Notes: a model not told the origin generated them from the sequence alone. A DNA stretch of 64,000 bases from an uncultured delta proteobacterium (GCA_963840855.1 CAWJBB010000068.1:32001-96000), one strand, 5' to 3'; counted from the first letter of the stretch, positions 12,514-37,838 are shown. A program made the numbers and translations.

Positions 12514-12837
12514 GATTGATATCTCTTCTCGATGACTTTAACTGTACGCAGAAGGCTGCGGGCCTTCAAGCGCACGGGATTTCAGGCGCGCAGCGTCTCG
12601 AGAAACGTTCGTCAACGTACTCAAAAAGCGCGATGGCGAGGCGCGAGGCGATGGATGTTTCGACGGGGCTGGTCGCGACCGTTCGCACTTGAGGCTCTCA
12701 AAGCGGGCGATTGAGCCCACGAAGCAAGAATCTTTTTCAGCAGCCTGCGAGATTGCCGACCAGCGATTTGGCGTAGTATAAGGATGGTCCAAAGGAAAGC
12801 TCGAAGCATGCTTACGGCGATTTAAAACAGCAATGGT

Positions 12838-14181
12838 ATGCCCAACAAAATTTTGATCGTTGACGACGAGCCGTTTAACCTCGATCTCCTCGAACAGGAG
12901 CTCACGGAACTCGGCTATGCCATCGAGCGAGCGAGCAACGGCGCCGAGGCTCTGCAACTCGTTGACAAGAATAGCCCAGATCTGGTTCTGCTCGATTACC
13001 AGATGCCCGACATGAACGGCATCGAGGTGCTACGCGCCATTCGCCAGGACAACGGCGATCTACCGGTGGTGATCATTACCGCGCACGGCAGTATCGAACG
13101 CGCGGTGGAGGCCGTCAAAGCCCGCGCCGACGACTTCATTACCAAGCCCTTCGATCCCGAGCATCTGGCCTTGGTGGTAAAAAAATGTTTGGAGCGCGCC
13201 CAGCTCAAATCCGACGTCGAGTTCTTCGCTCAAGAACTCGGTGGCCGCAGCCGCCTGATCTCCGGAAACAGCGCGGCGATGCTGCGAATCGTCGCGGAGG
13301 CGAAAAAGGCCGCCACCAGCAAATCCACGGTTCTACTGCTCGGTGAAAGCGGCACCGGCAAGGAACTCTTCGCCAGATCAATGCATGAATGGAGCGAGCG
13401 CAGATTGAAGCCCTTCGTCGCCATCAACTGCGCCGGTCTGGCCAAAGAGCTGCTGGAGAGCGAGTTGTTCGGGCATGAGAAAGGCGCTTTCACGGGAGCT
13501 CATCAATTGAAAAAAGGCAAGCTGGAGCTGGCGCATGGCGGCACGGCGTTTCTCGACGAGATTGGCGAGCTCGCGCTGGAGTTGCAAACCAAGCTCCTGC
13601 GTTTCCTTCAAGAACGAGAATTTGAGCGGGTCGGCGGAACGGCGCCCATCGAGGTGGATTTGCGCATCATCGCCGCTACCAATAGCGATCTTGAAGCGGC
13701 GGTTAAAGCCGGGACGTTCCGCCACGATCTCTTTCATCGCCTCAACGTCATCGCGCTCACCCTCCCGCCGCTGCGCGAAAGAAAAGAGGATATTCCGGCT
13801 CTGGCAGATTATTTCCTGCAGAGATTTTCTTTGGAGACAAAAAAACACTTCGCGGCGATTGCCGACGCCGCGCAGGAGAAACTCCTGGCTTACGGCTGGC
13901 CCGGCAACGTCCGCGAGCTCGCAAACGTCATTGAACGGGCGGTCGTCTTGGGCGATGGGCCGCAGTTAACGCTGCATCACCTCCCCGCCCGTGTGGTCGG
14001 CGCACAACCGGTCGGCGCTATGAATCAGTCGTCGTTCCATGACGCCATCAATAGCTACCGGCGCGAGCTGATCGTCCGCGCGCTCGCCGACGCTCAAGGG
14101 AACCGCGCCGCCGCCGCCAAAGCGCTCGGCCTGCACCGCACCCATCTGATGAAACTGCTCAAAGCGCTTCAGATAACTTAG
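12838..14181 (+). CDS. Sigma54-dependent response regulator (REC-AAA+-HTH, NtrC family)
   Basis: REC domain, GESGTGKE, ESELFGHEKGAFTGA, WPGNVREL and Fis-type HTH. Confidence 0.95.
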   Translation: MPNKILIVDDEPFNLDLLEQELTELGYAIERASNGAEALQLVDKNSPDLVLLDYQMPDMNGIEVLRAIRQDNGDLPVVIITAHGSIERAVEAVKARADDFITKPFDPEHLALVVKKCLERAQLKSDVEFFAQELGGRSRLISGNSAAMLRIVAEAKKAATSKSTVLLLGESGTGKELFARSMHEWSERRLKPFVAINCAGLAKELLESELFGHEKGAFTGAHQLKKGKLELAHGGTAFLDEIGELALELQTKLLRFLQEREFERVGGTAPIEVDLRIIAATNSDLEAAVKAGTFRHDLFHRLNVIALTLPPLRERKEDIPALADYFLQRFSLETKKHFAAIADAAQEKLLAYGWPGNVRELANVIERAVVLGDGPQLTLHHLPARVVGAQPVGAMNQSSFHDAINSYRRELIVRALADAQGNRAAAAKALGLHRTHLMKLLKALQIT

Positions 14182-14201
14182 AAGAAGTCGAGGAGTGCAG
14201 G

Positions 14202-14240
14202 TGTCGCACTCTTGCTACAGGGTGTATCAAATCGACTACA
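14202..14240. promoter_or_regulatory. Tandem enhancer-like sites (two TGT-N12-ACA, 21 bp apart)
   Basis: TGTCGCACTCTTGCTACA at 14202-14219 and TGTATCAAATCGACTACA at 14223-14240. Confidence 0.6.
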
Positions 14241-14338
14241 CTAACCGCGGCCTAGGGCCAATAACCTCGCTGACTGCCGCTGGCAATTGTTTAAGGAATT
14301 CAATGGCTTATTTCACAAACTGGGATATATCTAGCGTC

Positions 14339-14354
14339 TGGTATAGGTCTTGCG
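14339..14354 (+). promoter_or_regulatory. Sigma54 -24/-12 promoter
   Basis: TGGTATAGGTCTTGCG has GG-N10-GC spacing; near-IHF ATTCAATGGCTTA at 14298-14310 upstream. Confidence 0.65.
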
Positions 14355-14467
14355 CTGGAAATCAGTTCTGGGTGATTTACGACGATCAACAGGCCCAGCA
14401 CCCCAGGTTCAAATTTTTCGCTGCTGGAACGCACCATGCAGCCATGCCGGAAGGCTACGCAAAATTT

Positions 14468-15443
14468 ATGATTAAGAAGATTTTTTTTATTACCGTCCTT
14501 TCGTTTTACTCGTTCAATTTTTCCGCCACGGCGCAGCCAGCAAAGCCATACCGCATCGGCGTTATTCTTCCCGGCGGACCGCTGCACGAGGCAATCGACG
14601 GGCTCAGGGACGGCCTCAGAGAGCTCGGCCTTGAAGAAGGCAAACAATTTGCACTGACGATTCGGGATACAAAGGGCGACGCCAAGGAGGGCGAAGCGGC
14701 GGCGAAGAATTTTGAGCAAGAGAAGGTGAGTTTGATATACGCGCTCAGCCACCTCTGTCACAACGGCGGCAAAGGGGGCGACTGCGAGTATCCCGATCGT
14801 ATTCGGCGTCGGCAGCGATCCGGTCGCCGGCGGGGTCATGGATAGTATTTGCGAAACCCGGCGGAAGGCTTACGGGCGTCCACTACCTGGTCACGGACCT
14901 TACGGCGAAGCGCCTTGAGATCCTGAAAGAGATTCTTCCGAAGCTCAGCCGCGTGGTGACGTTCTACAATCCGGGAAACCGTGTTGCCACAGAAGGCAGC
15001 TGAGTCGGGACGCGAGGAAGCAAAGCGGCTGGGGCTCAAGTTCATCGAGAGACACGTTCCCTCCGTCGAGGAACTTCGCGAAGGCGCTGCAGGCGCTCAA
15101 GACCGGCGAGGTAGATGCTTATTTCTATACCTCGGACGCGATGGTGACCAGCCAGGCTCAACTGATCATCGACACGGCGAAGGCCAAGAAGTTGGCGACG
15201 ATGTTCCACGAGCAAAGCCTCGTCACCAAGGGAGCCCTTGCCAGCTACGGCCAGAACTTCCATGAAATCGGCCGCGCGTCGGCGAAGTATGTGCAGCGGA
15301 TTCTGAACGGCGCCCATCCCCGTGATCTACGAATGGAGACCATTGAGAATATGGAACTGGCGATCAACCTTCAGACGGCAAAACAGCTGGGACTCACCAT
15401 CCCGCCGCAGGTGCTGGCGCGAGCGAAGAAGGTGATCAAGTAG
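14468..15443 (+). CDS. Orphan ABC-type substrate-binding protein (ABC_sub_bind/DUF534), frameshifted
   Basis: Signal peptide, RIGV…GLRELG, ASYG…YVQRIL.GA.P and INLQTAKQLGLTIPPQVLARAKKVIK across three frames. Confidence 0.85.
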
Positions 15444-15537
15444 GCAAGCGGCGCGAGGCGGCAGGCAACAGGAAGAAATTTTAGATTTTCGATTTTGGAT
15501 TGAGAGGACCAAGTACATGACGAATCGGCCGGATGCG

Positions 15538-15643
15538 AGCAACCAACGAACTTTGAGTTTGTAATCAATCTGAAAACGCCAAACAGATCGGCCTGACGAT
15601 TCCGCCGAATGTGTTGGCGCGAGCGGACAGGGTGATTCGATAG
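15538..15643 (+). pseudogene. Isolated 3'-end fragment of an ABC_sub_bind gene (repeat copy 1)
   Basis: Translates as EQPTNFEFVINLKT/KQIGLTIPPNVLARADRVIR*; contains a 30-bp core at 15584-15613. Confidence 0.8.
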
Positions 15644-15704
15644 GCGTGAGGCGAAAGGCGTGAGAGGCAAGGAGATGCCAAGACGACTGAGTTCCTACTT
15701 CGGA

Positions 15705-16118
15705 TTAAGGGATTATCTCGAAGGCTCGATTCCGATTCATTCGATACGTGGAAAAGCCGCGGCGATCCAGCGTGAAAATCCAGTTTGTTCCCAACTCTTC
15801 GCCCAACACAACCAAGGTGGCGTCGGCAAAATCCATTGGGACATTGCGATATCTCTCCATCAGAGCCGTAACCCGCTGCAAGCTTTTCGCCGAGGACGGA
15901 ACCAAGTGAAAAGCGCCTCTGAGAACAAACTCAAGGCAAACTTTCTGCGCGCGCCACTGGGGTCCGACCAAATAGAGCGTTTCGGTCAACACGGCTTCAG
16001 TGGTGACGACAGGGCCGGTCCAGTTCTCCAACGCCGCTACGCAGTCACCGTGCAGCTTCTCGTCCCGATCCACGAGCGCCACGAAAGCCCCGGTATCCAA
16101 CAACAGTTCATCTTCCAC
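15705..16118 (-). CDS. vapC: PIN-domain toxin (VapC family)
   Basis: LLDTG…VLTE…MDFADA…FTLDRRGF. Confidence 0.9.
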   Translation of the reverse strand: MEDELLLDTGAFVALVDRDEKLHGDCVAALENWTGPVVTTEAVLTETLYLVGPQWRAQKVCLEFVLRGAFHLVPSSAKSLQRVTALMERYRNVPMDFADATLVVLGEELGTNWIFTLDRRGFSTYRMNRNRAFEIIP

Positions 16119-16357
16119 GGCGCAATCGATGGATCAGATAGTCGCGGTGGCGTTGCCCGAGATCGGAGCGGCCGCTGGCAATACTTGCCGAGCAAATCGC
16201 GCACACGCTCGATGGGGCGCACTTCCGGCTGGGTGTCCAGATATTGCTCCAAAGCCTCGCGCACCACTTCTGAACGCTTGCGCTTCAAGCGCTTGGCCGA
16301 CCGCTCGAGCTTTGCGGCTAAGTCCGCGGGCAGGCGCATGCTCAATTGCCGTTCCAT
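16108..16357 (-). CDS. Ribbon-helix-helix antitoxin (CopG/VapB-like), frameshift near 16185
   Basis: SMRLPADLAAKLERSAKRLKRKRSEVVREALEQYL; corrected frame ends SGRSDLGQRHRDYLIHRLRRGR* overlapping the toxin start. Confidence 0.85.
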
Positions 16358-16431
16358 ATGCTTTGCCTCCTAGTGCAATACAATGTAATGCAAAGTGGTA
16401 CAAAAGTCCATTCGTACCGAGTAGTCTGGAA

Positions 16432-16500
16432 CAGATCGGCCTGACGATTCCGCCGAATGTGCTGGTGAGGGCGGATAGGGTGATTCGAATAGGCGTGAGG
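16432..16500 (+). repeat. Second copy of the ABC_sub_bind 3'-end repeat
   Basis: CAGATCGGCCTGACGATTCCGCCGAATGTG is identical to 15584-15613 and 17536-17565; also shares GGGTGATTCGA(A)TAGGCGTGAGG with copy 1. Confidence 0.85.
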
Positions 16501-16572
16501 CACGAGGCGGATAGGCGAGAGGAAGAATTCGGATTGAAGCAGAAAATCATGGTTAGGAAATCATGATGCGAT

Positions 16573-17595
16573 TTGCACATCTTTTCCGCAGAATCTAAAA
16601 GCGGCAATCCAAAATCTAAAATGGGTGGCGATCTTCGCTATCGTCTCTCAGTCGCCATCGGTGGGGTGGCGGCCACGGCGCAGGAGCCGGCGAAGGTCTG
16701 GCGGATCGGTGTGCTGGTCTCAAGCTCTGCATCCTTGAATGCGTCCCGTGACGAAGCTCTCCGGCAAGGCTTACGCGAGATGGGTTATGTGGAGGGCAAG
16801 AACATCATCATGGAGTTCCGCTATGCCGACGGTAAACTGGATCGTCTTTCTGAGCTGGCCGCCGATCTGGTTCGCTCCAGGCCCGACCTTATCCTTGTCG
16901 GCGGCACCAGGGTGGCTGTTGCCGCCAAGCAAGCAACCGGCACAATCCCGATCGTCGTGGCGGGGGCCGGCGATCTTGTTGCGGCCGGAGTGGTTGACAA
17001 CCTCAACCGTCCCGGCGGCAACGTCACCGGGGTGTCCAGGCTTTCCCCGGAAATTCTCGGCACGCGAGTGGAGCTGCTCAAAGAAGTCATTCCAAAGGCC
17101 ACGCGCATAGCAACCCTCTTGAATCCTGAAAACCCTGGAAACGCGTCCAGTTTGAGAGAGATCGAGCTTGATGCGCTGGCGTGGGGAATGAGGCTCCAAG
17201 TGCTTGCTGCCCGCAGTCCCGATGACCTGGCAAGCGCCTTCAGAGCTGCGGTCAAGGAAAATTGCAGCGCTCTCATTGTCATGGTCGATGCCCTCTTCAG
17301 TAGCAACCGATCATCGATTGTCGAATTGGCGGTTAAGCATCGCCTGCCCGCGATCTATGACAGAGCCGAGTTTGCCGACGCTGGCGGACTGATTAGCTAT
17401 GGGATGAACTTGGCCGATCTGTCCCGGCGCGCCGCTTGGTATGTGGATCAGATTATAAAAGGCGCCAAGCCCGAGAAGTTGCCGCTAACGGAGCCGGCCA
17501 AGTTCGAGCTGATTATCAACCTCGAAGCCGCGAAGCAGATCGGCCTGACGATTCCGCCGAATGTGCTGGCAAGAGCAGACCGAGTGATCAGATGA
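16573..17595 (+). CDS. Orphan ABC-type substrate-binding protein (ABC_sub_bind); start uncertain
   Basis: RIGVL, GLREMGYVEGKNI, RPGGNVTG, GGLISYG and KQIGLTIPPNVLARADRVIR. Confidence 0.9.
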   Translation: MHIFSAESKSGNPKSKMGGDLRYRLSVAIGGVAATAQEPAKVWRIGVLVSSSASLNASRDEALRQGLREMGYVEGKNIIMEFRYADGKLDRLSELAADLVRSRPDLILVGGTRVAVAAKQATGTIPIVVAGAGDLVAAGVVDNLNRPGGNVTGVSRLSPEILGTRVELLKEVIPKATRIATLLNPENPGNASSLREIELDALAWGMRLQVLAARSPDDLASAFRAAVKENCSALIVMVDALFSSNRSSIVELAVKHRLPAIYDRAEFADAGGLISYGMNLADLSRRAAWYVDQIIKGAKPEKLPLTEPAKFELIINLEAAKQIGLTIPPNVLARADRVIR

Positions 17596-17744
17596 TTGCA
17601 AAATCTAAAATCGGGGCGGGCGATAGCTGATTCGGCCGGGATAAGACTAAAGGTTGGAGTCGACAAGCAATTGTGGATGTAGAGAGTATCGTGTAAGAGT
17701 CGAGAACCGGAACCGATGAAGATTGAAAAGGGATAAGCGCGTCA

Positions 17745-20162
17745 TTGGGAATTTGGAGAAGTGAGCGAAAATTGAAATTTCGCGAATTACCCCTGATAAG
17801 ATTGTTTACCGGGCGCCAGCGGGCCCGTTTGATGCGCGACTATTTTCTTATCTCCGTGCTGCTGGTGGGCGGCGGGCTGACCGCCAGCGGACTGATCGAG
17901 ATCTACTTCCGTTATCAGGAGAGCCAACAGCATTTGGCTCATTTGCAGCGGGAAATCGCCGCCGGCGCGGCCGTCAAAATCGAACGTTTCGTGCAAGAGA
18001 TCCACAACACTCTTAAAGGAGCGACGCGGAGCCGGGAGATCGCGCCGAAGGGTCTAACCACGGAATTTCGCTTTGAGCTGGAAAAACTCCTGCTGATCGC
18101 GCCGGCAATAACGGAAGCTCTCGCGCTCAATCAGTCGGGCGCGATCCAAGTCCAGGCATCGCGGTTACGCACAGTGCTTCCCGAAATCAAGAAAGATCTT
18201 GCGATCTCGCCGGCGTTCCTCCACGCCAAACAAGGCAAATCTTTTTTCGGAACCGTTTACTTCGTGCGCGGCTCCGAACCTTACATGACCATCGCCGTGC
18301 CCATCGAGCGTTTCGCTGGCGACGTCATCGGCGTACTCCAAGCCGAAGTCAACCTCAAGTACATCGGCGATGTGGTCACCAATCTCACCATCGGCAAAGC
18401 CGGGTATGCCTATGTCATCAGCCGCAGCGGCGAACTCATCGCCCATCCCGATATCAGTCTCGTTCTTCAACGCCGTAACGTTTCCCTGCTCGAGTCCACT
18501 AAGGCGGCATTCAGCGGCAAAAGCGGCATTAGCAGCCAACACGCCCTTGTGACTCCCAACATCCAGGGTAAAAATGTTCTGAGTTCCTCCGCGCTCATCC
18601 CCGGTCTCGACTGGGCGATCATCGTCGATCGGCCGGTGGAAGAGGCGTACGAACCCGTCTATGCATCGATGCTCAGGACTTCGGGCCTGCTCCTAGTCGG
18701 CCTCGGCATGGCGCTGATCGCGAGCTTGTTCCTGGCCCGGCGAGTCGTCCGTCCGGTGCGGATTCTCCGCGAGGGCGTGGAGCGCATCGGCACCGGCGAC
18801 TTGAGTTACCGGCTCGATCTGAAGACCGGCGACGAGATCGAAGTCTTGGCCGACGAATTCAACAAAATGACTTCTCGGCTGCGAGAGTCCTACGCCAACT
18901 TGGAGCACAAGGTCGAAGACCGCACGCGCGAGTTGACGGAATCTTTGGCGCAACAAACGGCGACCAGCGAGATTCTCGGAATCATCGCGAGTTCACCGAC
19001 TGACCTTCAGCCGGTCTTGGATGCTCTGGCTGAAAGCGCCGCGAGACTATGCGATGCCAATAGCGCGCAAATTTATCGCGCCGACGGAAATACCCTGAGA
19101 CTGGCGGCCTACCATGGATCACTTCCGGCAACTGAAGAGATTCCGATTGTCCGAAGCTCGGTCGCGGGCCGCGTGTTTCTCGACCGTCGAACCATTCATA
19201 TTGAAGATCTGGCAGCAGAAGTCGAAACCGAATTTCCCGCCGCCAAGCAGGCGCAAGAACGCTTCGGGTATCGAACTTTGCTCGCCACACCGTTGTTGCG
19301 TGAAGGAATTGCCCTGGGTGTCATAGGGATCCGCCGAACCGAGGTGCGTCCTTTCACAGATAAACAAACAGCTCTGCTAAAAACTTTCGCCGACCAGGCG
19401 GTGATTGCCATTGAAAACGTTCGCCTGTTCCAAGAACTGGGCGAAAAAAACGAACAGCTGGAAGTCGCCAGCAAACACAAGTCGCAATTTCTCGCCAACG
19501 TCAGCCACGAGCTGCGCACGCCGCTCAATTCGATTATCGGTTTCACCAGGATCGTCCTGCGCCGGTCCGAAGGAAAGATCGACGTTTTGCAGAAAGAAAA
19601 TCTGCAAAAAGTTTTGATCAGCGCCGAGCATCTGCTCAACCTGATCAACGGTTTGCTCGACCTGGCCAAAATCGAAGCCGGGCGCATGGAAATCTACGCC
19701 GAGACATTCAAGCTGGAAGAAATCGTCCGCATCGCCACTGCAACGGTCGAACCCATGCTGAGAAACGGTAACGTGCGCTTGGTCACTGAAATTGCCGCCG
19801 ATCTACCCCTGATCAAAACCGACCGCGACAAGCTCAAACAGGTGGTCCTCAATCTGCTCAGCAACTCGGCGAAATTTACCGAGAAAGGCGAGATCAAAGT
19901 CGCCGCGTGGACAGTGAATGGGTCGATGAAGCTTGCGGTGTCGGACACCGGCATCGGCATGAACCACGACGCAATCAATTATATATTCGAAGAATTTCGC
20001 CAGGTCGATATGTCGACGACGCGCAAATACGGCGGCACGGGACTCGGCCTGGCCATCGTCAAACGGCTCACGAATCTGCTCGGCGGCGACATTGCTGTCG
20101 AGAGCGAAGAAGGAAAAGGGACGAAGTTCACCGTGACACTGCCGATGGAACTGAAAAGTTAG
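17745..20162 (+). CDS. Sensor histidine kinase (Cache-HAMP-GAF-HisKA-HATPase)
   Basis: Two TMs flanking a Cache domain, GDEIEVLADEFN HAMP, TFADQAVIAIEN GAF, SHELRTPL and GTGLGL. Confidence 0.95.
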   Translation: MGIWRSERKLKFRELPLIRLFTGRQRARLMRDYFLISVLLVGGGLTASGLIEIYFRYQESQQHLAHLQREIAAGAAVKIERFVQEIHNTLKGATRSREIAPKGLTTEFRFELEKLLLIAPAITEALALNQSGAIQVQASRLRTVLPEIKKDLAISPAFLHAKQGKSFFGTVYFVRGSEPYMTIAVPIERFAGDVIGVLQAEVNLKYIGDVVTNLTIGKAGYAYVISRSGELIAHPDISLVLQRRNVSLLESTKAAFSGKSGISSQHALVTPNIQGKNVLSSSALIPGLDWAIIVDRPVEEAYEPVYASMLRTSGLLLVGLGMALIASLFLARRVVRPVRILREGVERIGTGDLSYRLDLKTGDEIEVLADEFNKMTSRLRESYANLEHKVEDRTRELTESLAQQTATSEILGIIASSPTDLQPVLDALAESAARLCDANSAQIYRADGNTLRLAAYHGSLPATEEIPIVRSSVAGRVFLDRRTIHIEDLAAEVETEFPAAKQAQERFGYRTLLATPLLREGIALGVIGIRRTEVRPFTDKQTALLKTFADQAVIAIENVRLFQELGEKNEQLEVASKHKSQFLANVSHELRTPLNSIIGFTRIVLRRSEGKIDVLQKENLQKVLISAEHLLNLINGLLDLAKIEAGRMEIYAETFKLEEIVRIATATVEPMLRNGNVRLVTEIAADLPLIKTDRDKLKQVVLNLLSNSAKFTEKGEIKVAAWTVNGSMKLAVSDTGIGMNHDAINYIFEEFRQVDMSTTRKYGGTGLGLAIVKRLTNLLGGDIAVESEEGKGTKFTVTLPMELKS

Positions 20163-20265
20163 GGGTAAACAGTGAGGAGTGAAGCGAGAAGTAAGGGTGA
20201 GGCGAGATCCCCTGTCTTTCGCTTCTAAATCCAGACTCCTTGCCCAAACTGGAAAGGGAAGACCT

Positions 20266-20633
20266 ATGTCCAAAAAAAAAATCCTCGTAGTCGATGACAC
20301 CGATTTTAACCGCGATCTCGTCGTGCAGTTGTTGGAGGACGAGTACGACATGGTGATCGCGGAGAACGGCGAAGAGGCGCTGCAAAAGAGCGAAAGCGGA
20401 AAGACCGGATCTTGATCTTGATGGACCTCGGCATGCCGGTGATGGACGGCTGGGAAGCGACCAGAATATTGAAGGCCAATGACAATCTCAAGCACATTCC
20501 GATCATCGCCGTGACCTCCCACGCCATGGTCGGCGACGAGATCGACGCCCGCAAGGCCGGCTGCGATGATTATCTGCCGAAACCGATCGACGAAGACCTT
20601 CTGCTCAGAAAGATTAGGAAGTATCTCGGATAG
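20266..20633 (+). CDS. Single-domain response regulator (DivK-like), frameshift near 20400
   Basis: MSKKKILVVDD… then LILMDLGMPVMDGWEA…AGCDDYLPKP. Confidence 0.9.
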
Positions 20634-20704
20634 TTTTGGATTTGCGTTTTGCGATACATGGATGGAGCCTATCTACACAACGCTTGGATTGGAGAAGAAA
20701 AACG

Positions 20705-21688
20705 ATGAATAGAAACGTTTGGGTTCTTCCACTGACTGTTTTTCTGTTGCTGATTGCTGCTATTTCAGGGGCGCAGCAAGCGGCCAAAGTATGGAAAATC
20801 GGCGTGCTGGTTTCGGGCAACAAGGCGTCGAACGCGATGCGCGATGACGCGTTGCGCGAGGGGTTGCGGCAACTAGGCTACGAGGAGAACAAGAACATCG
20901 TCTGGGAGTACCGCTACGCCGAAGGCAAAACGGATCGCTTGCCGCAACTCGCGCGCGAGCTGGTCGAGCAAAAACCCGACGTCATCGTCGTGGGTGGCAC
21001 CAGCGTCGCCGTCGCCGCGAAGAACGCCACCAGTGCGATTCCCATCGTCGTCGCCGGCGCCGGCGACTTGGTGGAAGCCGGCCTGGTCAAGAGTTTCATG
21101 TACCCGGGTGGCAATGTCACCGGCGTTTCGCGCATGTCTCCAGATTATTTTGGCGCGCGGCTCAAACTGATCAAGGAAATCATGCCCAAAACCGCGCAGG
21201 TCGCGGCCCTGGCGAATCCTAAGAATCCCGGTTACGCGCGCAGTATCAAGGATGCCGAGTTGGGCGCCCAATCCCTCGGCATGACTTTCCAGACGGTCAA
21301 CGCGCGCACGCCCGACGAGCTGGATAACGCCGTCGGCAGCGCCGGCAAGGGCGGCGCCACTGCGCTCTTCGTCATGACTGACGCAATGTTCAATAGTAAC
21401 GTCGCGCGACTCGCCAAGGCATCGATCAAGTACCGGCTCGCTGCCGTCTATGATCGCCCCGACTTCGTGGAGGCCGGCGGGCTATTGAGCTACGGCGTGA
21501 ACCTGGCCGATTTAAACCGGCGTGCCGCTGAATATGTGGATCAAATCTTCAAGGGCAAAAAGCCCGCTGATCTGACGCTGGTGGAACCGACGAAGTTTGA
21601 CTTGGCGGTCAACTTGAAAACGGCCCAACAGATCGGCATCACGATACCGCCTGAAGTAATAAACCGGGCGGGGAAAGTCGTTAGGTGA
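20705..21688 (+). CDS. Orphan ABC-type substrate-binding protein (ABC_sub_bind)
   Basis: Signal peptide; close paralogue of 16573-17595 (shared VAGAGDLV, GNVTGVSR, YG.NLADL). Confidence 0.9.
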   Translation: MNRNVWVLPLTVFLLLIAAISGAQQAAKVWKIGVLVSGNKASNAMRDDALREGLRQLGYEENKNIVWEYRYAEGKTDRLPQLARELVEQKPDVIVVGGTSVAVAAKNATSAIPIVVAGAGDLVEAGLVKSFMYPGGNVTGVSRMSPDYFGARLKLIKEIMPKTAQVAALANPKNPGYARSIKDAELGAQSLGMTFQTVNARTPDELDNAVGSAGKGGATALFVMTDAMFNSNVARLAKASIKYRLAAVYDRPDFVEAGGLLSYGVNLADLNRRAAEYVDQIFKGKKPADLTLVEPTKFDLAVNLKTAQQIGITIPPEVINRAGKVVR

Positions 21689-21711
21689 AGCGCAGGCGTG
21701 AGGGTGAAGTT

Positions 21712-22794
21712 ATGCCGAACAAAATCCTGATCGTCGACGACGAGCCGTTTAACCTCGATCTCCTGGAACAAGAGCTCATGGATTATGATTACGTGATCGA
21801 AAAAGCGGCCGACGGCGTAGAGGCGCTGGAGAAGATCGATAGCTTCGACCCCGACGTCATACTGCTCGACTATATGATGCCGAGGATGAACGGCTTGGAG
21901 GTTGTCCGGCGCCTTAGAGAGAACGAAAAGCATAAGAGTATCCCCGTCATTCTCTTGACCGCGAAAGCAAGCCAGGAGGATAAAATCGCCGGGCTCGACG
22001 CCGGAGCGGATGATTACGTCACCAAACCGTTCGACTCCTTCGAGTTGTTGGCGCGGGTGCGGGCGATGCTGCGCATTAAGCAGATGCACGATACTTTGGA
22101 AGAGTGGAACAGGACTCTCGCCGATAAAGTGAGCCAGCAAGTCACCGAACTGCAGCGCATGGAACGGCTCCGGCGTTATCTCTCGCCGCAGATCGCCGAG
22201 ACCATCTTGGGCAACGAAGCAGCCCTGTTCAAGACGCACCGGCGGGAAATCACCGTGGTCTTTCTCGACCTGCGCGGTTTCACGGCGTTTTCCGATAGCG
22301 CCGAACCCGAAGAGGTGATGGATTGTTTGCGTCACTATCACGCCGAAATGGGCAAGTTGGTTTTCAAATACGAAGGCACGTTGGAACGCTTCATGGGCGA
22401 TGGTATTGTCGTGATCTTCAACGACCCGATCCCGTGTGAAAACCATTCGCAAAAGGCCGCCCAGATGGCGATTGAAATGCGCAACCGAGTCAAAGAATTA
22501 CGCGTCGCGTGGCTCAAGATGGGTTATGATCTCGATCTGGGCGTGGGTTTGGCGAGCGGCTACGCGACGCTTGGAACAGTTGGTTTTGAAGGCCGAATGG
22601 ACTATGGAACGATAGGCAATCTACCCAACCTGGCCGCGCGGCTCTGCGCGGAAGCTCAAGGCGGCCAGATAGTGACGGATCAGAAGACCATGAGCAAGCT
22701 CGAAGAGCACATCGAAGCCGCAGCCCTTGAAGGGCTGCGCCTCAAGGGGATCAACCGCCCGGTTACGGCGTATAATCTGCTCAACACAAAGTAG
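21712..22794 (+). CDS. Response regulator fused to a class III adenylate/guanylate cyclase
   Basis: REC domain, then VFLDLRGFTAFS, FMGDG, GFEGRMDY and NLAARLC. Confidence 0.95.
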   Translation: MPNKILIVDDEPFNLDLLEQELMDYDYVIEKAADGVEALEKIDSFDPDVILLDYMMPRMNGLEVVRRLRENEKHKSIPVILLTAKASQEDKIAGLDAGADDYVTKPFDSFELLARVRAMLRIKQMHDTLEEWNRTLADKVSQQVTELQRMERLRRYLSPQIAETILGNEAALFKTHRREITVVFLDLRGFTAFSDSAEPEEVMDCLRHYHAEMGKLVFKYEGTLERFMGDGIVVIFNDPIPCENHSQKAAQMAIEMRNRVKELRVAWLKMGYDLDLGVGLASGYATLGTVGFEGRMDYGTIGNLPNLAARLCAEAQGGQIVTDQKTMSKLEEHIEAAALEGLRLKGINRPVTAYNLLNTK

Positions 22795-22799
22795 CGGGG

Positions 22800-23732
22800 A
22801 TGAACCAAAACAATAGATCCGACGCGCGGCGGAGCGCATCATTCGTGGTGCGGTTCTGGGGCGTGCGCGGCAGTTATCCCGCCACCGATCCGGCGACTCG
22901 CGGAATCGGCGGCAATACCTCTTGTGTCGAGGTCGCGGTGGCCGGACAGCGCCTAATTTTCGACGCCGGAACAGGGATCATTCCTTTGGGCAAAGAGATT
23001 TGCAATGATTTTTCCGCGCGGCCCACCGCCTATGTCTTTTTGAGCCATACGCACATGGATCATATCATGGGACTTTGCTTCTTTGAGCCCCTCCTTACGG
23101 CCGGGGCGCGTTCGTTCATTTTCGGTCCGGGAAATTCCCGAGGAGCCTTGACTAGAAGTTTGCGGCAACTAACGCACAGCCACCTGTTCCCGGTAACCAT
23201 CGACGAGCTCAAAGGAAGAAAGGAAATTCACTCCCTTCAGGGCGGCGAGATCATTCGCTTTCCGTCACCCGGCAAAAGACCCACCATCGATAAGAATTCA
23301 CAATCGAATCGGCTCGACTCCGAGGAGCTTGAGATCACCGCCCTCAAGAGCGTGGCTCATCCGCGCTCCGGCGTGATGCTTTACCGGGTGAACTTCGGCG
23401 GGAAAAGTCTGGTGTACGCTACCGACGTCGAACAAAAGGAAGGCGGTTACCCTGAAATTATTGAATTCGCGCGGGGCGCTGATCTTCTGATCCATGACGC
23501 GCAGTACTTACACGACGAATATTTTTCCCAGAGTAAACCGAAAATGGGTTGGGGCCACAGCACCATCGAGATGGCCGCGGAGGTGGCCCGGAAGGCCGGC
23601 GTCCAGCGACTCGCGCTTTTTCACCACGAGCCGAGCCATGACGATAAAACCATGCGGGCTATTGAACGAGAAGGCAAACGGTTATTTCCACGATCGCTGA
23701 TCGCCCACGAGGGCATGAAATTATCATTGTAA
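22800..23732 (+). CDS. MBL-fold metallohydrolase (putative cyclic nucleotide phosphodiesterase)
   Basis: FWGVRGS, GGNTSC, SHTHMDH, HDAQY, GWGHS and HHEP. Confidence 0.85.
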   Translation: MNQNNRSDARRSASFVVRFWGVRGSYPATDPATRGIGGNTSCVEVAVAGQRLIFDAGTGIIPLGKEICNDFSARPTAYVFLSHTHMDHIMGLCFFEPLLTAGARSFIFGPGNSRGALTRSLRQLTHSHLFPVTIDELKGRKEIHSLQGGEIIRFPSPGKRPTIDKNSQSNRLDSEELEITALKSVAHPRSGVMLYRVNFGGKSLVYATDVEQKEGGYPEIIEFARGADLLIHDAQYLHDEYFSQSKPKMGWGHSTIEMAAEVARKAGVQRLALFHHEPSHDDKTMRAIEREGKRLFPRSLIAHEGMKLSL

Positions 23733-23739
23733 CAATCGC

Positions 23740-24726
23740 ATGGTAAACACCGTCACAGTGTTCACTGGAAATCTGCTCGCGATACTTTTCATGCTCGCTT
23801 GCGCGGCCTTCGAAGCCCAAGCACAAATGCACCGTATTGGCGTCTTGGTGCCCGAAATGGGCCGGGCGCAGTCCCAAGCGCAAAAAGGACTGATCGAGGA
23901 ACTGCAACAGTTAGGCTACCAACCACGGAAAAACGTCAGTTTTGAAATCCGCAATGCCAAGGGCAACCGAAATGCGCTTCAACCCGCGGCCAATGAACTC
24001 GCCGCGAGTAAAATCAATTTAATTTTTACCACCGGAACCAGAGCCACGCTGGCGGCAAGCGCGGCCACGCGCGATATTCCCATCGTTTTCGTTCATCCGG
24101 GCGACCCCATCGCGTTGGGTCTCTTGAAAGGTTCCGGAGAATCCAGAGGCAACGTCATGGGTGTCGCCGCCTTCGCGGCGCAAACGACGGACATCCGGCT
24201 CGCGCTTCTGAAAGAAATCTTTCCCGCGCTGCAAAAACTCCACATCTATTTTGACTCCAACAGCAGTTATGCAGCGGAGAATTTGGCTCTAGTGGAATCC
24301 GCCGCCAAAAAGCTGGCTCTACATGTCGTTAACCACGGCGTAAAATCAGTGGACGAGTTGAAAGCGAGCGTCAGCGCGACTCCGAGCGAGCAGGGCGCGG
24401 CAATTTTTCACATACCGGATGACCTGGTTGAAAGCGAGGTGGATTTCATCTTTGAAACGGCGCGGCAAAAGAAACTGCCGACGATGTTCAACGAGGAGGC
24501 TTGGGCCATCGCCGGGGCGATGGCCGCCCACGGGCCCAACTATTTTCAGATGGGCCGCCAGGCCGGCCGTCTCGCGGACGGAATTCTCAAAGGACAAACG
24601 CGCGGTTCCGTGCCGGTCCAGCGTGCCGCTAAATTCGATCTGACGCTCAATTATCGGACGGCCAACATTATCGGATTGCGCCTTTCTCAGGAGATCTTGA
24701 AAAAAGCCGACAAGGTCATTCGCTGA
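23740..24726 (+). CDS. Orphan ABC-type substrate-binding protein (ABC_sub_bind, divergent)
   Basis: RIGVL, IPIVF..GDP and LNYRTANIIGLRLSQEILKKADKVIR. Confidence 0.85.
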   Translation: MVNTVTVFTGNLLAILFMLACAAFEAQAQMHRIGVLVPEMGRAQSQAQKGLIEELQQLGYQPRKNVSFEIRNAKGNRNALQPAANELAASKINLIFTTGTRATLAASAATRDIPIVFVHPGDPIALGLLKGSGESRGNVMGVAAFAAQTTDIRLALLKEIFPALQKLHIYFDSNSSYAAENLALVESAAKKLALHVVNHGVKSVDELKASVSATPSEQGAAIFHIPDDLVESEVDFIFETARQKKLPTMFNEEAWAIAGAMAAHGPNYFQMGRQAGRLADGILKGQTRGSVPVQRAAKFDLTLNYRTANIIGLRLSQEILKKADKVIR

Positions 24727-24738
24727 CCGAGCCAACTC

Positions 24739-27405
24739 ATGGAGCCCGTCGCCGATACCATCAGAACCATTCCCATATTCTCCGGGCTTTCCCGCGAGGA
24801 TACCGCGAAGGTTCTCGGCAAAATGGAAGAGACTTCGTTTGCCGCCGGGACAACGATTGTTTCCCAAGGCGATCAGGGCGATGCGTTTTATCTGATTCAG
24901 TCCGGCGCGGTGCAGGTGATGTTGGAAAGCGACGCCGGCAAGTCGGAAGTCATCGCGGTGCTCGGGGCGAAGGACTGGTTCGGAGAAATGGCGCTGTTTA
25001 CCGGCGAGCCACGTTCAGCGACGATCTTGGCGGTAAAGCCGACGATTCTCTGGCGCCTCAACCGCGAGGCCTGGGATGATCTCATCGACAAACATCCGAC
25101 CTGGCTCTTGCAGCTCTGCGCGACCCTGAGCAAACGACTGTCTCACCTGGATCGGCAATATTCCACGGGACGCGAAGCATTCAACTCGTTGGCGGGAGAG
25201 TTCTACAGCTCGCGGCCGCCCGAGCAGCAACAGTTTTTCCGCCGCGCCTGTCTGCTGAGCGATATCGACAGTTCCACGGTAGAGCGGTTACTCGGCACGG
25301 CCGGGGCGAAATCATACCTGGCGGATCTCGAAAAGAACCGGTTCCGTCTGGTCCGCCGTCTGGACGGAACAAAATACGAGCTGCACAGCTACTTCAAAGA
25401 TTTCCTGCGGGAAAAGCTGCTCGAAACCGATGGCAAAGAAACCAAACTCAAGCTCGACCGGCAAATCAGCGCCGAGTATGCGGCGCTGGGCGATTGGCGG
25501 CAAGCGGTTTACCATTTGTTGGAAGCCGGCGACTCGCCCAAAGCGGCCGAGCTTCTGATTGCGCAAAAGGAGCCGTTGCTGAGCGACGCTGTTGGGTTTG
25601 TCAAGGCGGCCATCGACTCCTTGCCCAGGGATCAACTTTATTCCGACCCGCGCCTGGTTCACTTGCACGCGACGGCGCTGGCCCAACTGGGCGACCCGGC
25701 GGGAGCCGTGCGCATTTACAGAGAAGTTCTTTCTCAACGATCTCGAGAAATTGCCGGGGCCGAGGCCATCACTCGCCATATCCGCATGGCGGAAACTCTG
25801 GCGCGGCGAAAGGAATTTGGCCAGGCGCTTAGCGTTTTGCGCAGTGCCCTCGACATGGCCGGTCATGAGAGCGTGACATCGTCCGGCGACGTCTCGAGAC
25901 TTTACCTCGACGCGAACCATCAGACGGCGACAAACCCGTTGGGCGCAGCTGGGGTCGTGGCATCGCCGTTCCGTTACCGGCTAGGAAAATATTCCGGCTC
26001 AGTCGAAATAGGATCGGTCAGCAAATGGTTCGGCGCCATTCTCGGCTTGGGCCTATGGGGATATCTCTGGTTTGGCAAACCAGACATCGGCCTTGATGAC
26101 AGCGGCACGAAACTACTCGGATTGTTGTCCCTAACGTTGATCTATTGGGTTTTCTGGGTGTTGCCCGATTACGGTGTAGCGTTCATCTTCGCCCTGGGAC
26201 TGATACTTACCGGATTGGCATCGGGGGAAACCGTCCTGGGAGGCTTCGCCAGCACCACTTGGTTTATGACCCTGGGTGTGCTCGGCCTGGGAGCGGCGAT
26301 CACCGGCTCAGGTCTATTTTATCGCCTCTCCCTGCACCTGGTGCGGTTTTTCCCTTTGAGTTTTTATTGGCAGGTCGTCGGCATGGGCCTCATGGGCGTC
26401 GTCGTCATGGCATTGATCCCGCAACAGACCGCAAGAACAGTCGTCATCAGCCAGATGCTGGTGAACCTTTCCGAGAGCCTTGGCTATAAAACCCCTTCCA
26501 GGGCATCCACCGGTTTGTTCGCCGCAAGTTTTCTTGGACTGGGCCAGCTCGGTTTTCTTTTTCTTACGGGTTCCACCACCAGTTTGATCGCCTGGGGCCT
26601 GCTGCCCGCGGATGTGCGCAGCCAACTCACCTGGGGATATTGGTTTCTCGCCGCCCTTCCGCCCGCATCGATCGTCCTCATCATGGTGCTGGCCGCCATC
26701 GTTCTTATCTTCCGGCCCGAGTCGGAGCCGAAGATTTCTTATAAAATGGTGCAAACCCAACTGGATGTTCTGGGGCCGCTGTCCGCCAAGGAATGGATCA
26801 GTCTGGGAGTGCTCTGCTTCACAGTTACAGGGTGGCTTACGGTCTCTTATCACGGCATCGACGGCGCTTGGATCGCGTTGATTGCCTTTTGCGTTTTGGT
26901 CAATACCGGTGTCTTGGGCTGGCAAAATTTGAAAAAGGCGATTGATTGGGAATTACTCCTCTATATGGGCGTAACGTTGAGCATCCCCACGCTCTTAACT
27001 CAGGCCAGAATCGACCAATGGCTGGTGGAACTGATGACTCCGGCAATCGAACCTTTTATGAATCATCCCGCTTCGTTTTTCCTCGTTATCGCCCTGCTTA
27101 CCTACGCGCTCAAATTGTTCTTTACTAGTTTCCTTACCGTGGTAACGCTCTCCGTCGCGTTGGTGCCATTGTCGGTCGATGTCGGCATGAGTCCCTGGAT
27201 CATCGCCATGATCATTCTGATGGCATCGGAAGTCTGGTTTTTCCCGTTTCAGGTGGACTGGCACACGATGGCGTACTCCACCACCGAGAAAAAAGGTTTC
27301 AGCTATCCGCTCATGTGCCGCGTCAATCCCATCTACGCCCTCGCCTACATCACCGCCCTCATCGCAGCGATCCCGTATTGGAGATACCTCGGCCTGATGG
27401 ACTAG
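24739..27405 (+). CDS. cNMP-binding / MalT-like helical-TPR / DASS (SLC13) transporter fusion
   Basis: N-terminal GDQGDAFY…FGEMALFTGEPRSAT; middle YELHSYFKDFL plus TPRs; C-terminal ~450 aa multi-TM region with LIPQQTAR, FLTGS and LGPLSAKE. Confidence 0.85.
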   Translation: MEPVADTIRTIPIFSGLSREDTAKVLGKMEETSFAAGTTIVSQGDQGDAFYLIQSGAVQVMLESDAGKSEVIAVLGAKDWFGEMALFTGEPRSATILAVKPTILWRLNREAWDDLIDKHPTWLLQLCATLSKRLSHLDRQYSTGREAFNSLAGEFYSSRPPEQQQFFRRACLLSDIDSSTVERLLGTAGAKSYLADLEKNRFRLVRRLDGTKYELHSYFKDFLREKLLETDGKETKLKLDRQISAEYAALGDWRQAVYHLLEAGDSPKAAELLIAQKEPLLSDAVGFVKAAIDSLPRDQLYSDPRLVHLHATALAQLGDPAGAVRIYREVLSQRSREIAGAEAITRHIRMAETLARRKEFGQALSVLRSALDMAGHESVTSSGDVSRLYLDANHQTATNPLGAAGVVASPFRYRLGKYSGSVEIGSVSKWFGAILGLGLWGYLWFGKPDIGLDDSGTKLLGLLSLTLIYWVFWVLPDYGVAFIFALGLILTGLASGETVLGGFASTTWFMTLGVLGLGAAITGSGLFYRLSLHLVRFFPLSFYWQVVGMGLMGVVVMALIPQQTARTVVISQMLVNLSESLGYKTPSRASTGLFAASFLGLGQLGFLFLTGSTTSLIAWGLLPADVRSQLTWGYWFLAALPPASIVLIMVLAAIVLIFRPESEPKISYKMVQTQLDVLGPLSAKEWISLGVLCFTVTGWLTVSYHGIDGAWIALIAFCVLVNTGVLGWQNLKKAIDWELLLYMGVTLSIPTLLTQARIDQWLVELMTPAIEPFMNHPASFFLVIALLTYALKLFFTSFLTVVTLSVALVPLSVDVGMSPWIIAMIILMASEVWFFPFQVDWHTMAYSTTEKKGFSYPLMCRVNPIYALAYITALIAAIPYWRYLGLMD

Positions 27406-27525
27406 GCGCGACCGGAATACGCGCCCGTTCCCGAGGGATAAACTCTTTCGTTGTTCGCGCTCGTAGTTCGACCGTTTGACTTTGCTCACGACCCTCAGAC
27501 TTGATCAAGCTGCCAAGCAAAGACT

Positions 27526-29346: not shown

Positions 29347-29720
29347 GGGGCTCTGGTGGATCCGTGCAATCAGCGCTAAGCGACTGTTGATAGTCTGTCC
29401 TGTCGCATAATTCAATGCCCCTTCCAGTCAGATAAACTGGATTGACAGGTGAATCAATAACTCCTTGGCACTTGTTGGCGGTTTACGATTTCTCGTTAAC
29501 CCCAACTCGGTTGAACGCGCGCCTGTTTCTATTTCCCGGACGAATCCGGCGCTCTTCTATGCGCCCTGCGATGAACGACAAAACCTCGTAGTGGGTCCGA
29601 CCAAATTTGTCTACGCTTCCGCTCATCAGTATCTTTACCGGGTTCGTATTCCCTCCCTTATGACCCCAGGAGTCACCAATAGTGAAGCCCTTTCTTAACG
29701 CCCTACTTTACGCCACCGAT

Positions 29721-29736
29721 TGGCATGCTTACTGCA
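29721..29736 (+). promoter_or_regulatory. Sigma54 -24/-12 promoter
   Basis: TGGCATGCTTACTGCA has GG-N10-GC spacing, 55 bp upstream of the ATG at 29791. Confidence 0.6.
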
Positions 29737-29790
29737 CCTGCGCCGGGGAACATTCAATCCCTGAGCCGGCGTCAACGCCGGTGTGGCGAC

Positions 29791-37289: not shown

Positions 37290-37838
37290 ATGGAAGAGCA
37301 TATTCGTAGCATTCTAAAGACCATTGGCGAGGATCCCGACCGCGAAGGCTTGCTTCGGACACCGCAGCGGGTTTCCCAAGCTCTCGAGTTTTTGACCCAG
37401 GGATACCGCATGGACCCCGAAAAAGTCATCAACGATGCGCTTTTCACGGAAGATTACGAAGAGATGATCGTCCAGAAAGACATCGATTTCTATTCCCTGT
37501 GCGAGCACCACATGCTGCCCTTTTTCGGCAAGGCGCACGTGGCGTATATTCCCCACCACAAGATCGTCGGCATTTCTAAACTTGCCCGTTTAGTGGACGT
37601 TTACTCCCGCCGCCTCCAGGTCCAGGAACGGCTCACCAACCAGATCGCCACGATCATCATGGAGAAACTCGACGCCTTGGGCGTCGCCGTGGTCATCGAA
37701 GCGGAGCATCTGTGCATGAGAATGCGCGGCATCCAAAAACAGAATTCATTCGTTATCACCAGCACGCTGCTCGGCGCCTTTCGCACGCGGCAAGAAACCC
37801 GCAACGAATTCATGACTCTAATCAGGCAAAAAGGCTAA
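37290..37838 (+). CDS. folE: GTP cyclohydrolase I
   Basis: [24 protein letters not shown] and HLCMRMRG. Confidence 0.97.

Follow-up and report, generated by a model that had tools for sequence, protein, structure and literature searches.

Gene content and conservation of the island

We analyzed a 64,000-nucleotide stretch of DNA from an uncultured delta proteobacterium (GCA_963840855.1, CAWJBB010000068.1:32001-96000), hereafter called the window. Positions 12838 to 27405 hold an island that encodes four substrate-binding proteins (SBPs) of the PF04392 (ABC_sub_bind) family, here named SBP_A to SBP_D, together with an NtrC-type response regulator, a sensor histidine kinase, a single-domain receiver (REC) protein, a REC protein joined to a class III nucleotidyl cyclase, a metallo-β-lactamase (MBL)-fold hydrolase, and a DASS-type transporter that carries a cyclic nucleotide monophosphate (cNMP)-binding domain. 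A preliminary description, made from the sequence, had read this island as a signaling circuit in which orphan SBPs are wired to the kinase, the cyclase, a phosphodiesterase-like enzyme and a cNMP-regulated transporter. The analysis presented here partly supports that first reading.

All genes that had been named for the island were recovered from open reading frames (ORFs) and Pfam matches on the plus strand at the expected coordinates (Table 1). The close, co-oriented packing described earlier was also borne out, with gaps of 2 to 149 nt or a 4-nt overlap. The spacing is 149 nt between SBP_B and the kinase, 2 nt between REC and SBP_C, 5 nt between the cyclase and the MBL gene, 7 nt between the MBL gene and SBP_D, and 12 nt between SBP_D and the transporter; SBP_C and the cyclase share the 4-nt overlap. 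From the kinase through the transporter, ORFs thus overlap or lie at most 12 nt apart, the spacer between kinase and REC being the sole exception. SBP_B, SBP_C, and SBP_D matched PF04392 with 193.6, 186.2, and 171.9 bits against a cut-off of 25.9, while the window SBPs scored 138.8 to 144 bits and so missed the cut-off of the NCBIfam TrpX equivalog NF041285 (390). No ABC_tran or BPD_transp domain was found among the 57 window ORFs of at least 110 aa that were scanned with Pfam, in line with the earlier statement that the four SBPs come without an ABC permease or ATPase. A scan of positions 12000 to 29800 for sigma70 promoters and terminators returned counts at the level of shuffled sequence.

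The near relatives of the source genome are metagenome-assembled genomes (MAGs) of Candidatus Binatia. The island's gene set was present in seven of eight sampled genomes of the window's own Binatia family (f1), at 58 to 67% identity and with its order conserved together with the two-component system. The cyclase, MBL, SBP_D, and cNMP-binding transporter genes travel together in relatives. Because the same arrangement recurs in relatives, we do not regard it as a product of chance.

TABLE 1 Features in and next to the island (window positions in nucleotides)
Feature	Position	Strand	Basis
NtrC-type response regulator	12838..14181	+	Pfam Response_reg, Sigma54_activat, AAA_lid_14, HTH_8 (Fis-type helix-turn-helix)
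Candidate -24/-12 (sigma54) element, weak, upstream of SBP_A	14425..14440	+	Two-mismatch match keeping GG and GC
SBP_A, PF04392, signal peptide, frame broken in assembly	~14468..15443	+	Pfam matches pieces; tblastn in two frames
SBP C-terminus remnant, 22 aa, 95% identical to the SBP_B end	15572..15637	+	Sequence comparison
PIN (VapC-like)/RHH toxin-antitoxin pair	15705..16357 (PIN 15705-16118, RHH 16037-16357)	-	Pfam PIN, RHH_1
Second SBP C-terminus remnant, 20 aa, 90% identical to SBP_B	16429..16488	+	Sequence comparison
SBP_B, PF04392, directly 5′ of the kinase	16573..17595	+	Pfam, E 5.7e-57
Sensor histidine kinase: transmembrane (TM)-dCache_1-TM-HAMP-GAF-HisKA-HATPase	17745..20162	+	Pfam; hydrophobic stretches by eye
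Single-domain REC, two extra bases in assembly	~20266..20633	+	ORFs in two frames; alignment to three relatives
SBP_C, PF04392, signal peptide, probable start 20705	20636..21688	+	Pfam; 58% identical to SBP_B
REC + class III nucleotidyl cyclase, probable start 21712	21685..22794	+	Pfam Response_reg, Guanylate_cyc
MBL-fold hydrolase (Lactamase_B_2), candidate cNMP phosphodiesterase	22800..23732	+	Pfam PF12706
SBP_D, PF04392, signal peptide	23740..24726	+	Pfam; orthologue alignment
cNMP_binding/TPR/Na_sulph_symp protein, 888 aa	24739..27405	+	Pfam, NCBIfam
CHASE2-sensor adenylate cyclase, convergent with the transporter	27526..29415	-	Pfam CHASE2, Guanylate_cyc

The sensor kinase, its neighboring binding proteins and its probable outputs

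The kinase places its dCache_1 domain (residues 61-294) between two stretches that appear hydrophobic by eye. Searching contigs of one genome per species with residues 1-385, which span the dCache-HAMP part, we obtained 80 loci whose sensor part is 53 to 87% identical to that of the window. An SBP was scored as directly upstream when a PF04392 gene lay on the same strand within 700 nt, and a locus as informative when at least 1,200 nt of upstream sequence was available. By this measure, an SBP gene directly precedes the kinase in 45 of 60 informative loci, often as an array of two to four, and further SBP genes occur 3′ of the kinase and REC, the position held by SBP_C, in many of them. The source genome encodes four such kinases, one in the window and the others at L011, L012, and L016, and each has an upstream SBP, with a histidine phosphatase gene standing between the two at L016. 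Conservation of gene order, on which the preliminary description had made its reading depend, was found both for this pair and, in 12 of 18 loci, for SBP_D and the transporter (see below).

Outputs were counted in the 57 loci with at least 1,500 nt of downstream sequence. A REC-cyclase follows in 16, and of these 16, 8 continue with an MBL gene and 5 with a sigma54 activator. An NtrC-type activator directly follows the kinase in 11 further loci, 18 have another REC only, 2 end in a cyclase-type REC, and 7 have none of these. In the remaining three, the dCache-HAMP part appears to be fused to a cyclase domain itself. One of these fusions was confirmed by Pfam (L131:2838-7108, OZ245330.1), where a single ORF of 620 aa with the order dCache_1-HAMP-Guanylate_cyc lies between two SBP genes. 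By the Rosetta-stone argument, this fusion speaks for placing the sensor and the cyclase in one pathway. The proposed link from kinase to REC-cyclase is thus seen as neighboring genes in 16 loci and is mirrored by the three apparent sensor-cyclase fusions. An upstream SBP was present with each kind of output, at 6/7 informative loci with a cyclase and no sigma54 activator, 4/5 with a cyclase and a sigma54 activator, 6/9 with an NtrC-type activator, and 1/1 with the fused cyclase. The L131 fusion indicates that the SBPs accompany the sensor domain and not any given transcriptional output.

The NtrC-type activator encoded at the start of the island is a probable second output of the same kinase. 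Its REC domain is 51% identical to that of the REC-cyclase, and the first 22 residues of the two are identical. Since the first residues of a REC domain carry much of its specificity for the partner kinase, this likeness fits a branched output of a single kinase. The order kinase, REC-cyclase, sigma54 activator is found in five loci, and the sigma54 branch of the proposed circuit is, on this comparison of sequences and gene orders, plausible.

Secreted SBPs that act on sensor kinases are known from other families. Genes of kinase-stimulating SBPs sit with signaling genes, and LuxP-LuxQ, ChvE-VirA, HptA-HptS, CBP-ChiS, and AioX-AioS share with the window a secreted SBP encoded beside a dCache-type kinase (PMC8050422). 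The window differs in the SBP family, PF04392, the name ABC_sub_bind having no occurrence in that review. It differs further in that arrays of several diverse paralogues surround a single sensor of high conservation and that the output is often a cyclase. To place the SBPs relative to one another, we built a FastTree phylogeny of 102 PF04392 proteins, comprising 53 full-length copies from the source genome, 10 transporter-adjacent orthologues, and 39 kinase-upstream proteins from relatives; fragments were excluded. In this tree, SBP_B and the SBP that precedes the kinase in the nearest relative fall together. We consider it possible, at slightly less than even odds, that the PF04392 proteins flanking the kinase serve as ligand-presenting co-sensors of its dCache domain.

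One element of the first reading was not upheld. SBP_C had been described as wired to the cyclase that it precedes. SBP_C is missing between REC and cyclase in two loci (L042 and L048), and in the tree it clusters with SBP_B and with the kinase-upstream SBPs of L072, L084, and L093. No membrane span was seen by eye in the REC-cyclase, which would put the cyclase out of reach of a secreted SBP, and we therefore doubt that the two are in contact. The placement of SBP_C before the cyclase is, judging from tree and gene order, positional, and SBP_C appears to belong with the kinase.

Predicted nucleotide turnover and the cNMP-binding transporter

Pfam matches in the REC-cyclase are confined to the REC and cyclase domains (PF00211, 72.7 bits), and the nearest solved structure is CyaB of P. 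aeruginosa (3r5g, E 9.5e-36). Alignment to CyaB, Cya2 (2w01), and CyaC (1wc0) showed that the two metal Asp residues, the Asn, and the Arg are kept in the window protein and in 7/7 orthologues; here and below, we presume the metal-binding, transition-state, and substrate-specifying roles usually assigned to such positions. Fusions of REC with class III cyclases are familiar from CyaC of Anabaena and Spirulina, with which the window protein shares its REC fusion but from which it differs in its substrate-specifying pair, Arg/Gly. Our default guess for the product would be cAMP. A second cyclase, the CHASE2-sensor protein convergent with the transporter, carries the Lys/Thr pair of adenylate cyclases as judged by eye against the structure alignments, and matches to this CHASE2 cyclase adjoin the transporter also in L038, L055, L056, and L060.

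The MBL protein matches PF12706 with 69.9 bits and has the motif SHTHMDH at residues 82-88; H83, H85, D87, H88, H187, D209, and H253 are invariant in 60 sequences. Its AlphaFold model (pLDDT, the predicted local distance difference test, 93.5) is closest to the folds of RNase Z (1y44), YhfI (6kns), an ElaC homologue (1zkp), and a PhnP-family enzyme. Atypical class-II phosphodiesterases have been defined by PF12706 together with a [T/S]HxHxDH motif and are related to RNase Z, the member Rv1339 having been modeled on YhfI (PMC9293780). The window protein shares these features and the kinship to RNase Z and YhfI with the Rv1339 group, from which it is set apart by NCBIfam scores far below cut-off and by being encoded directly after a cyclase. 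The family comprises 778 representatives at E <= 1e-30. Six of 13 unusually long relatives proved to be fusions, three to GAF-HisKA-HATPase, two to STAS, and one to PilZ (P0177, P0181, P0254, P0220, P0244, and P0264), and these fusions to signaling domains speak for a signaling role. The protein fits the atypical class-II group and is likely, from these motifs and folds, to degrade cNMP.

In the transporter, Pfam recognizes cNMP_binding (residues 32-119; PF00027, 88.6 bits against 27.5), TPR_14, Na_sulph_symp (residues 449-886; PF00939, 113.9 bits against 27), and CitMHS, and NCBIfam models recover pieces named dass, CRP, and MalT. The cNMP-binding loop FGEMALFTGEPRSA is present (FGEM..GEPRSA), intact, and conserved, and E83 and R92 do not vary among 30 sequences; we take the loop motif and these residues to have their customary roles in nucleotide binding. 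The family holds 533 clusters at E <= 1e-10, and the best 120 of them are all 884 to 897 aa long with the same domains. Reading the membrane domain by eye, without alignment, we saw no Ser-Asn-Thr (SNT) tripeptide, the hairpin motif of VcINDY. Among 151 sampled Binatia genomes, the transporter was present in 14, including seven of the eight f1 genomes.

SBP_D is closely tied to this transporter. It is encoded directly upstream in 6 of 10 informative genome-contig loci (L038, L039, L040, L042, L048, and L050) and in 6 of 8 informative loci of the 151-genome sample (L055 to L060); the two sets may share genomes, so that 12/18 is an upper count of independent cases. The gap between the two genes is 9 to 17 nt in most loci. 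All SBP_D orthologues begin with a signal peptide and are 42 to 70% identical, and the 11 transporter-adjacent SBPs form a single clade with a support of 100. The structures nearest to SBP_D are 6hni, 3lkv, and 3lft, and the known ligands of PF04392 proteins in solved structures are Trp, Tyr, and Phe (PMC10443332). On these genomic grounds, we tentatively suggest, with the odds a little below even, that SBP_D partners the DASS-type transporter and delivers its substrate.

Such a pairing has precedents in other transporter families. The membrane parts of TRAP transporters have the DASS fold, and TAXI-GltS is a newly described SBP-dependent elevator-type transporter that was proposed from co-localization, translational coupling, and fusions (PMC12344293). 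As in the TRAP, TTT, and TAXI-GltS systems, the SBP gene in the window lies immediately 5′ of the gene for an elevator-type secondary transporter. The window pair differs in that the family of SBP_D is known from ABC systems, in that the DASS-like membrane part has an N-terminal extension with cNMP-binding and TPR domains, and in that no SBP fusion was found in what was a weak search. A further difference is that the 12 nt separating SBP_D from the transporter leave no room for a gene; the search for a Q- or TctB-like small subunit was confined to this gap. The regulatory extension also has a relative, as fusions of cNMP-binding domains to MFS transporters are on record and described as uncharacterized (PMC10710835); the window protein differs from these in being of the DASS type and in having a MalT-like/TPR region between its sensor and membrane domains. 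No paper on a cNMP-binding DASS protein was found in literature searches.

To our knowledge, characterized DASS transporters work without binding proteins. This would favor a different assignment of SBP_D, namely as a co-receptor of the CHASE2 adenylate cyclase or of the kinase that would signal when substrate is available, with cAMP switching on a transporter that needs no SBP. The CHASE2 cyclase adjoins the transporter both here and in the four further loci listed above and has an adenylate-type Lys/Thr pair, which would be consistent with such an arrangement. In the available flanks of L039 and L042, however, there is no CHASE2 cyclase and SBP_D still adjoins the transporter, and in most loci SBP_D and the transporter lie 9 to 17 nt apart. 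We therefore regard a role of SBP_D as a co-receptor as improbable and retain SBP_D as the candidate partner of the transporter.

Taken together, these observations suggest the following scheme. The periplasmic dCache domain of the membrane-bound kinase would sense a solute, most likely aided by the flanking secreted PF04392 proteins, and the kinase would pass phosphate to the REC-cyclase; the NtrC-type activator and the single-domain REC would probably be phosphorylated by it as well. The cyclase would make a cyclic nucleotide, for which the CHASE2 adenylate cyclase would be a second source. The nucleotide would bind to the N-terminal cNMP-binding domain of the DASS-type transporter and switch its activity, and the MBL enzyme would remove the nucleotide. 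SBP_D would most likely feed substrate to the transporter, as happens in TRAP, TTT, and TAXI-GltS. To this scheme as a whole, a conserved signaling-and-uptake operon of one Binatia family, we assign a probability of roughly 0.55. It builds on observations of domain content, conserved catalytic and binding motifs, gene order, the single SBP_D clade, and the absence of ABC partners close by. Predictions from sequence cover every physical interaction within it, as well as which nucleotide is made, whether the MBL enzyme acts as a phosphodiesterase, what is transported, and which way regulation works.

A cyclase, a cNMP-binding membrane protein, and an MBL enzyme might also be taken for a Pycsar-like anti-phage system. 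PADLOC models for PycC match both cyclases (60 and 85 bits), and models for Pycsar effectors recognize the cNMP-binding domain (59 bits). These scores, however, are about those of the general Pfam cyclase and cNMP models, and the MBL protein and SBP_D match no PADLOC model. Pycsar is a compact, mobile cassette of two genes, a dedicated cyclase and a cNMP-activated killing effector. Here, a receiver domain controls the cyclase, an entire DASS transporter domain makes up the membrane part, and the gene set, two-component system included, keeps its order in 7 of 8 sampled genomes of one family. We regard a defense function as extremely improbable, and the signaling-and-uptake operon remains our preferred reading.

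The preliminary description had stated that no system with this full composition was known. Each part has a known counterpart, and to that extent the statement does not stand; the full combination and the pairing of an SBP with a DASS transporter were, however, not found in literature searches. The parts are all of known kinds; what would be new, if real, is the pairing of an SBP with a cNMP-controlled DASS transporter. In its most far-reaching form, the scheme would make SBP_D and the cNMP-binding DASS protein an undescribed class of binding-protein-dependent secondary transporter, in which an ABC-type SBP docks onto an SLC13-like elevator protein and activity is gated in real time by a cNMP whose synthesis is under two-component control, with more than 50 orphan SBPs as interchangeable ligand adaptors of one highly conserved dCache sensor. 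We consider this form doubtful. If true, it would add PF04392 to the binding-protein families used in signaling, provide a natural case of second-messenger gating of a secondary transporter, a mode of control proposed from domain fusions but described as uncharacterized (PMC10710835), and offer an explanation for the very large expansion of orphan SBPs in Binatia, an uncultured and widespread soil lineage. It would also extend the recruitment of binding proteins by elevator-type transporters to the DASS/SLC13 fold (PMC12344293).

The PF04392 expansion and the state of the assembly

The source genome is a 7.10-Mb assembly in 93 contigs with a completeness of 94% and a contamination of 8%, and it contains 114 matches to PF04392. 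A hidden Markov model built from the genome's own copies identified 53 ORFs that span 80% or more of the model, along with 73 fragments, distributed over 41 clusters, many of which are tandem arrays. The count of fragments is probably too high, since assembly indels or strain-specific lesions would split genes. Among 20 relatives, the number of PF04392 matches at E <= 1e-30 ranged from 0 to at least 68; the domain was present in 11 of 12 genomes of family f1 and in 0 of 4 genomes of family f3. The PF04392 expansion is a trait of the window's Binatia family. Scoring the co-occurrence of PF04392 with cNMP-DASS proteins in the 151 Binatia genomes was uninformative, as f1 had them in 8/8 and 7/8 genomes, respectively, and the two were uncorrelated outside f1. 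Literature searches yielded no paper on Binatia PF04392 proteins.

We presume that PF02653 (BPD_transp_2) is the permease type normally paired with PF04392 SBPs. The source genome has 12 matches to this domain, at six places. Five of these are LivHM-type loci, four of them with their own Peripla_BP_6 protein; the sixth, on contig C84, is weak (E 6.6e-4), falls short of the Pfam cut-off, and was not confirmed by the ORF scan. Scanning 361 neighboring ORFs, within up to 5 kb of every SBP cluster other than the window's, gave no BPD_transp_2 domain, and the ABC components that do lie near SBP clusters (L009, L010, and L035) are of the BPD_transp_1 type and come with their own SBP_bac_1/8 proteins. 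PF02653 was thus not found within about 5 kb of any of the 41 clusters, and the orphan status of the window SBPs, for which the preliminary description had proposed a genome-wide count of SBPs and permeases, was supported by that count.

The commonest neighbors of the SBP clusters are catabolic enzymes, SBPs of other orphan families, toxin-antitoxin genes, and genes of mobile elements. The catabolic neighbors include amidohydrolases, Rieske/ring-hydroxylating oxygenases, hydantoinase B, UbiD, molybdenum hydroxylases, and glyoxalases. We note that SBPs of other families, above all NMT1 but also SBP_bac_1/6/8 and TctC, likewise occur without nearby permeases, interleaved with PF04392 genes and with genes for aromatic and amide catabolism (L001 to L037). 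Elsewhere in the source genome, at L028 (G000:C75:18571-29743), an SBP gene is followed by a REC-GGDEF gene and then by a MASE1-GAF hybrid kinase gene, a c-di-GMP counterpart of the order SBP then REC-cyclase. In other Binatia families, PF04392 also occurs in fused multi-SBP proteins of ~680 to 1,050 aa with two or three domains per frame (for example, G031:C48:32498-35314, G126:C53, G091:C18, G160:C74, and G050:C32; P0276 and P0277).

Several observations weigh against the signaling-and-uptake scheme. A directly adjoining SBP is absent from 15 of the 60 kinase loci, and on the tree the 43 kinase-upstream SBPs do not group together but are interspersed with other paralogues, which requires 21 changes; this scatter fits the view that the sensor merely sits in SBP arrays equally well as it fits specific co-receptors. 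No SBP_D precedes the transporter in L043, L046, L047, L049, L061, and L068, and more distant cNMP-DASS genes in other families (33 to 37% identity) have no SBP within 1.5 kb. Long relatives of SBP_D numbered only two, both tandem SBPs, and no fusion of an SBP with a DASS or signaling domain was seen in this search, which was weak. The DASS domain scores 126.1 bits, below the TIGR00785 cut-off of 198.6. The best NCBIfam scores of the MBL protein are far under the respective cut-offs, at 88.8 versus 293 for RNase Z and 45.6 versus 400 for the cNMP phosphodiesterase model NF041851. In the cyclase, the Arg/Gly pair replaces the Lys/Thr or Lys/Asp of adenylate cyclases in 7/7 orthologues, which leaves its product uncertain. 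The first position is Arg here, Lys in adenylate cyclases, and Glu in Cya2, and the second is Gly here and in Cya2 and Thr in CyaB and CyaC. The control of SBP expression that had been attributed to the sigma54 branch did not find support, unlike the branch itself: the -24/-12 motif is not enriched in the window (22 matches versus 29.5 expected) and occurs in 4/53 regions upstream of SBP genes versus a background of 3.9%. Finally, one of the LivHM-type loci, on contig G000:C51 at ~97.6-101.3 kb (L152), has two BPD_transp_2 proteins and one ATPase and no adjoining SBP, and this ABC system could serve as a shared partner of the orphan SBPs.

In another explanation, the SBPs are a very large, fast-turnover family for nutrient scavenging that feeds a shared transporter elsewhere, the kinase and its regulators control expression of the arrays, as in DctBD and TctDE, without using the SBPs as sensors, and SBP_D is kept next to the transporter by operon inertia. 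Besides the SBP-less system on C51, the company of the 41 clusters, mostly catabolic, orphan SBP, toxin-antitoxin, and transposase genes rather than signaling genes, would suit such a family, as would the scatter of kinase-adjoining SBPs through the tree. The NtrC-type activators that follow the kinase in 11/57 loci, and the cyclase in five more, would provide the transcriptional arm. A precedent exists in the orphan Bug/TctC expansion of Bordetella and Cupriavidus, where dozens of paralogous SBPs have very few membrane partners and are often encoded beside catabolic genes (PMC5812351). We take the expansion in Bordetella to be the closest described parallel, with the differences that the window family is PF04392, that the phylum is another, that no copy has a cognate permease type beside it, and that many copies are fragmentary in the assembly. 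Three observations argue against scavenging under transcriptional control. The link between SBP and sensor also holds when the output is a cyclase, including the SBP-flanked dCache-HAMP-cyclase fusion; the transporter-adjacent SBPs are one clade of 42 to 70% identity with tight spacing; and there is no sigma54 motif enrichment upstream of the SBPs. We judge this explanation to be unlikely, at a level that nonetheless deserves to be taken seriously, and prefer the signaling-and-uptake operon.

The integrity of the locus also had to be considered, as two of its genes have broken frames in this assembly. In tblastn, SBP_A is divided between frame 2 (14498-14740) and frame 3 (14748-15440), the shift falling near 14740-14748, and REC has two extra single bases in an alignment with three relatives whose frame is intact. 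We compared positions 14400 to 20700 with Logan contigs from four public sequencing runs of soil and permafrost, which represent close relatives from samples other than the source (best share of words, 0.32). The extra bases at 20394 and 20413 in REC are missing in contigs of runs X1, X2, and X4, those at 14748 and 14847 in SBP_A are missing in contigs of X1 and X6, and that at 14993 in SBP_A is missing in contigs of X2 and X6. Further genes in the window are truncated or split, namely those for an M17 peptidase (37712-38800), PBP2 (41298-42737), HsdR (49701-52420), and HsdM (55872-57423), as are genes for hydantoinase B, SRAP, and an NtrC elsewhere in the genome. The split genes in the window suggest that indel errors are frequent in this assembly. 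Because contigs of other metagenomes are without the extra bases and other window genes are also split, the frameshifts in SBP_A and REC are more likely an assembly error or a strain-specific defect than a sign of a decayed locus.

A decaying locus, that is, pseudogenes in a junk-rich island, would be in keeping with these frameshifts, with the SBP remnants and the inserted toxin-antitoxin pair, and with the 73 SBP fragments in the genome. The absence of the extra bases from contigs of three to four other metagenome runs and the intact genes of relatives speak against decay, and the split in PBP2, a protein that is essential in rod-shaped bacteria, points to assembly indels instead. We consider decay very improbable.

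The comparison with the four runs also showed that the summed contig depth peaks 10- to 100-fold at 15455-15665, 16299-16509, 17354-17564, and 19253-19674. These peaks correspond to the conserved C-terminal stretch of the SBPs and to the HisKA region, which are common to many soil organisms or paralogues. The PIN/RHH pair between SBP_A and SBP_B lies between two short direct repeats that are the SBP C-terminal remnants (15572-16488), and it looks as if the pair had been inserted into, or recombined between, tandem SBP genes. Upstream of the island, Pfam identifies a gene for an AI-2E family transporter on the opposite strand, and a type I restriction-modification system (HsdR, HsdS, and HsdM) with a DUF4357 gene occupies positions 49701 to 57423 of the window.

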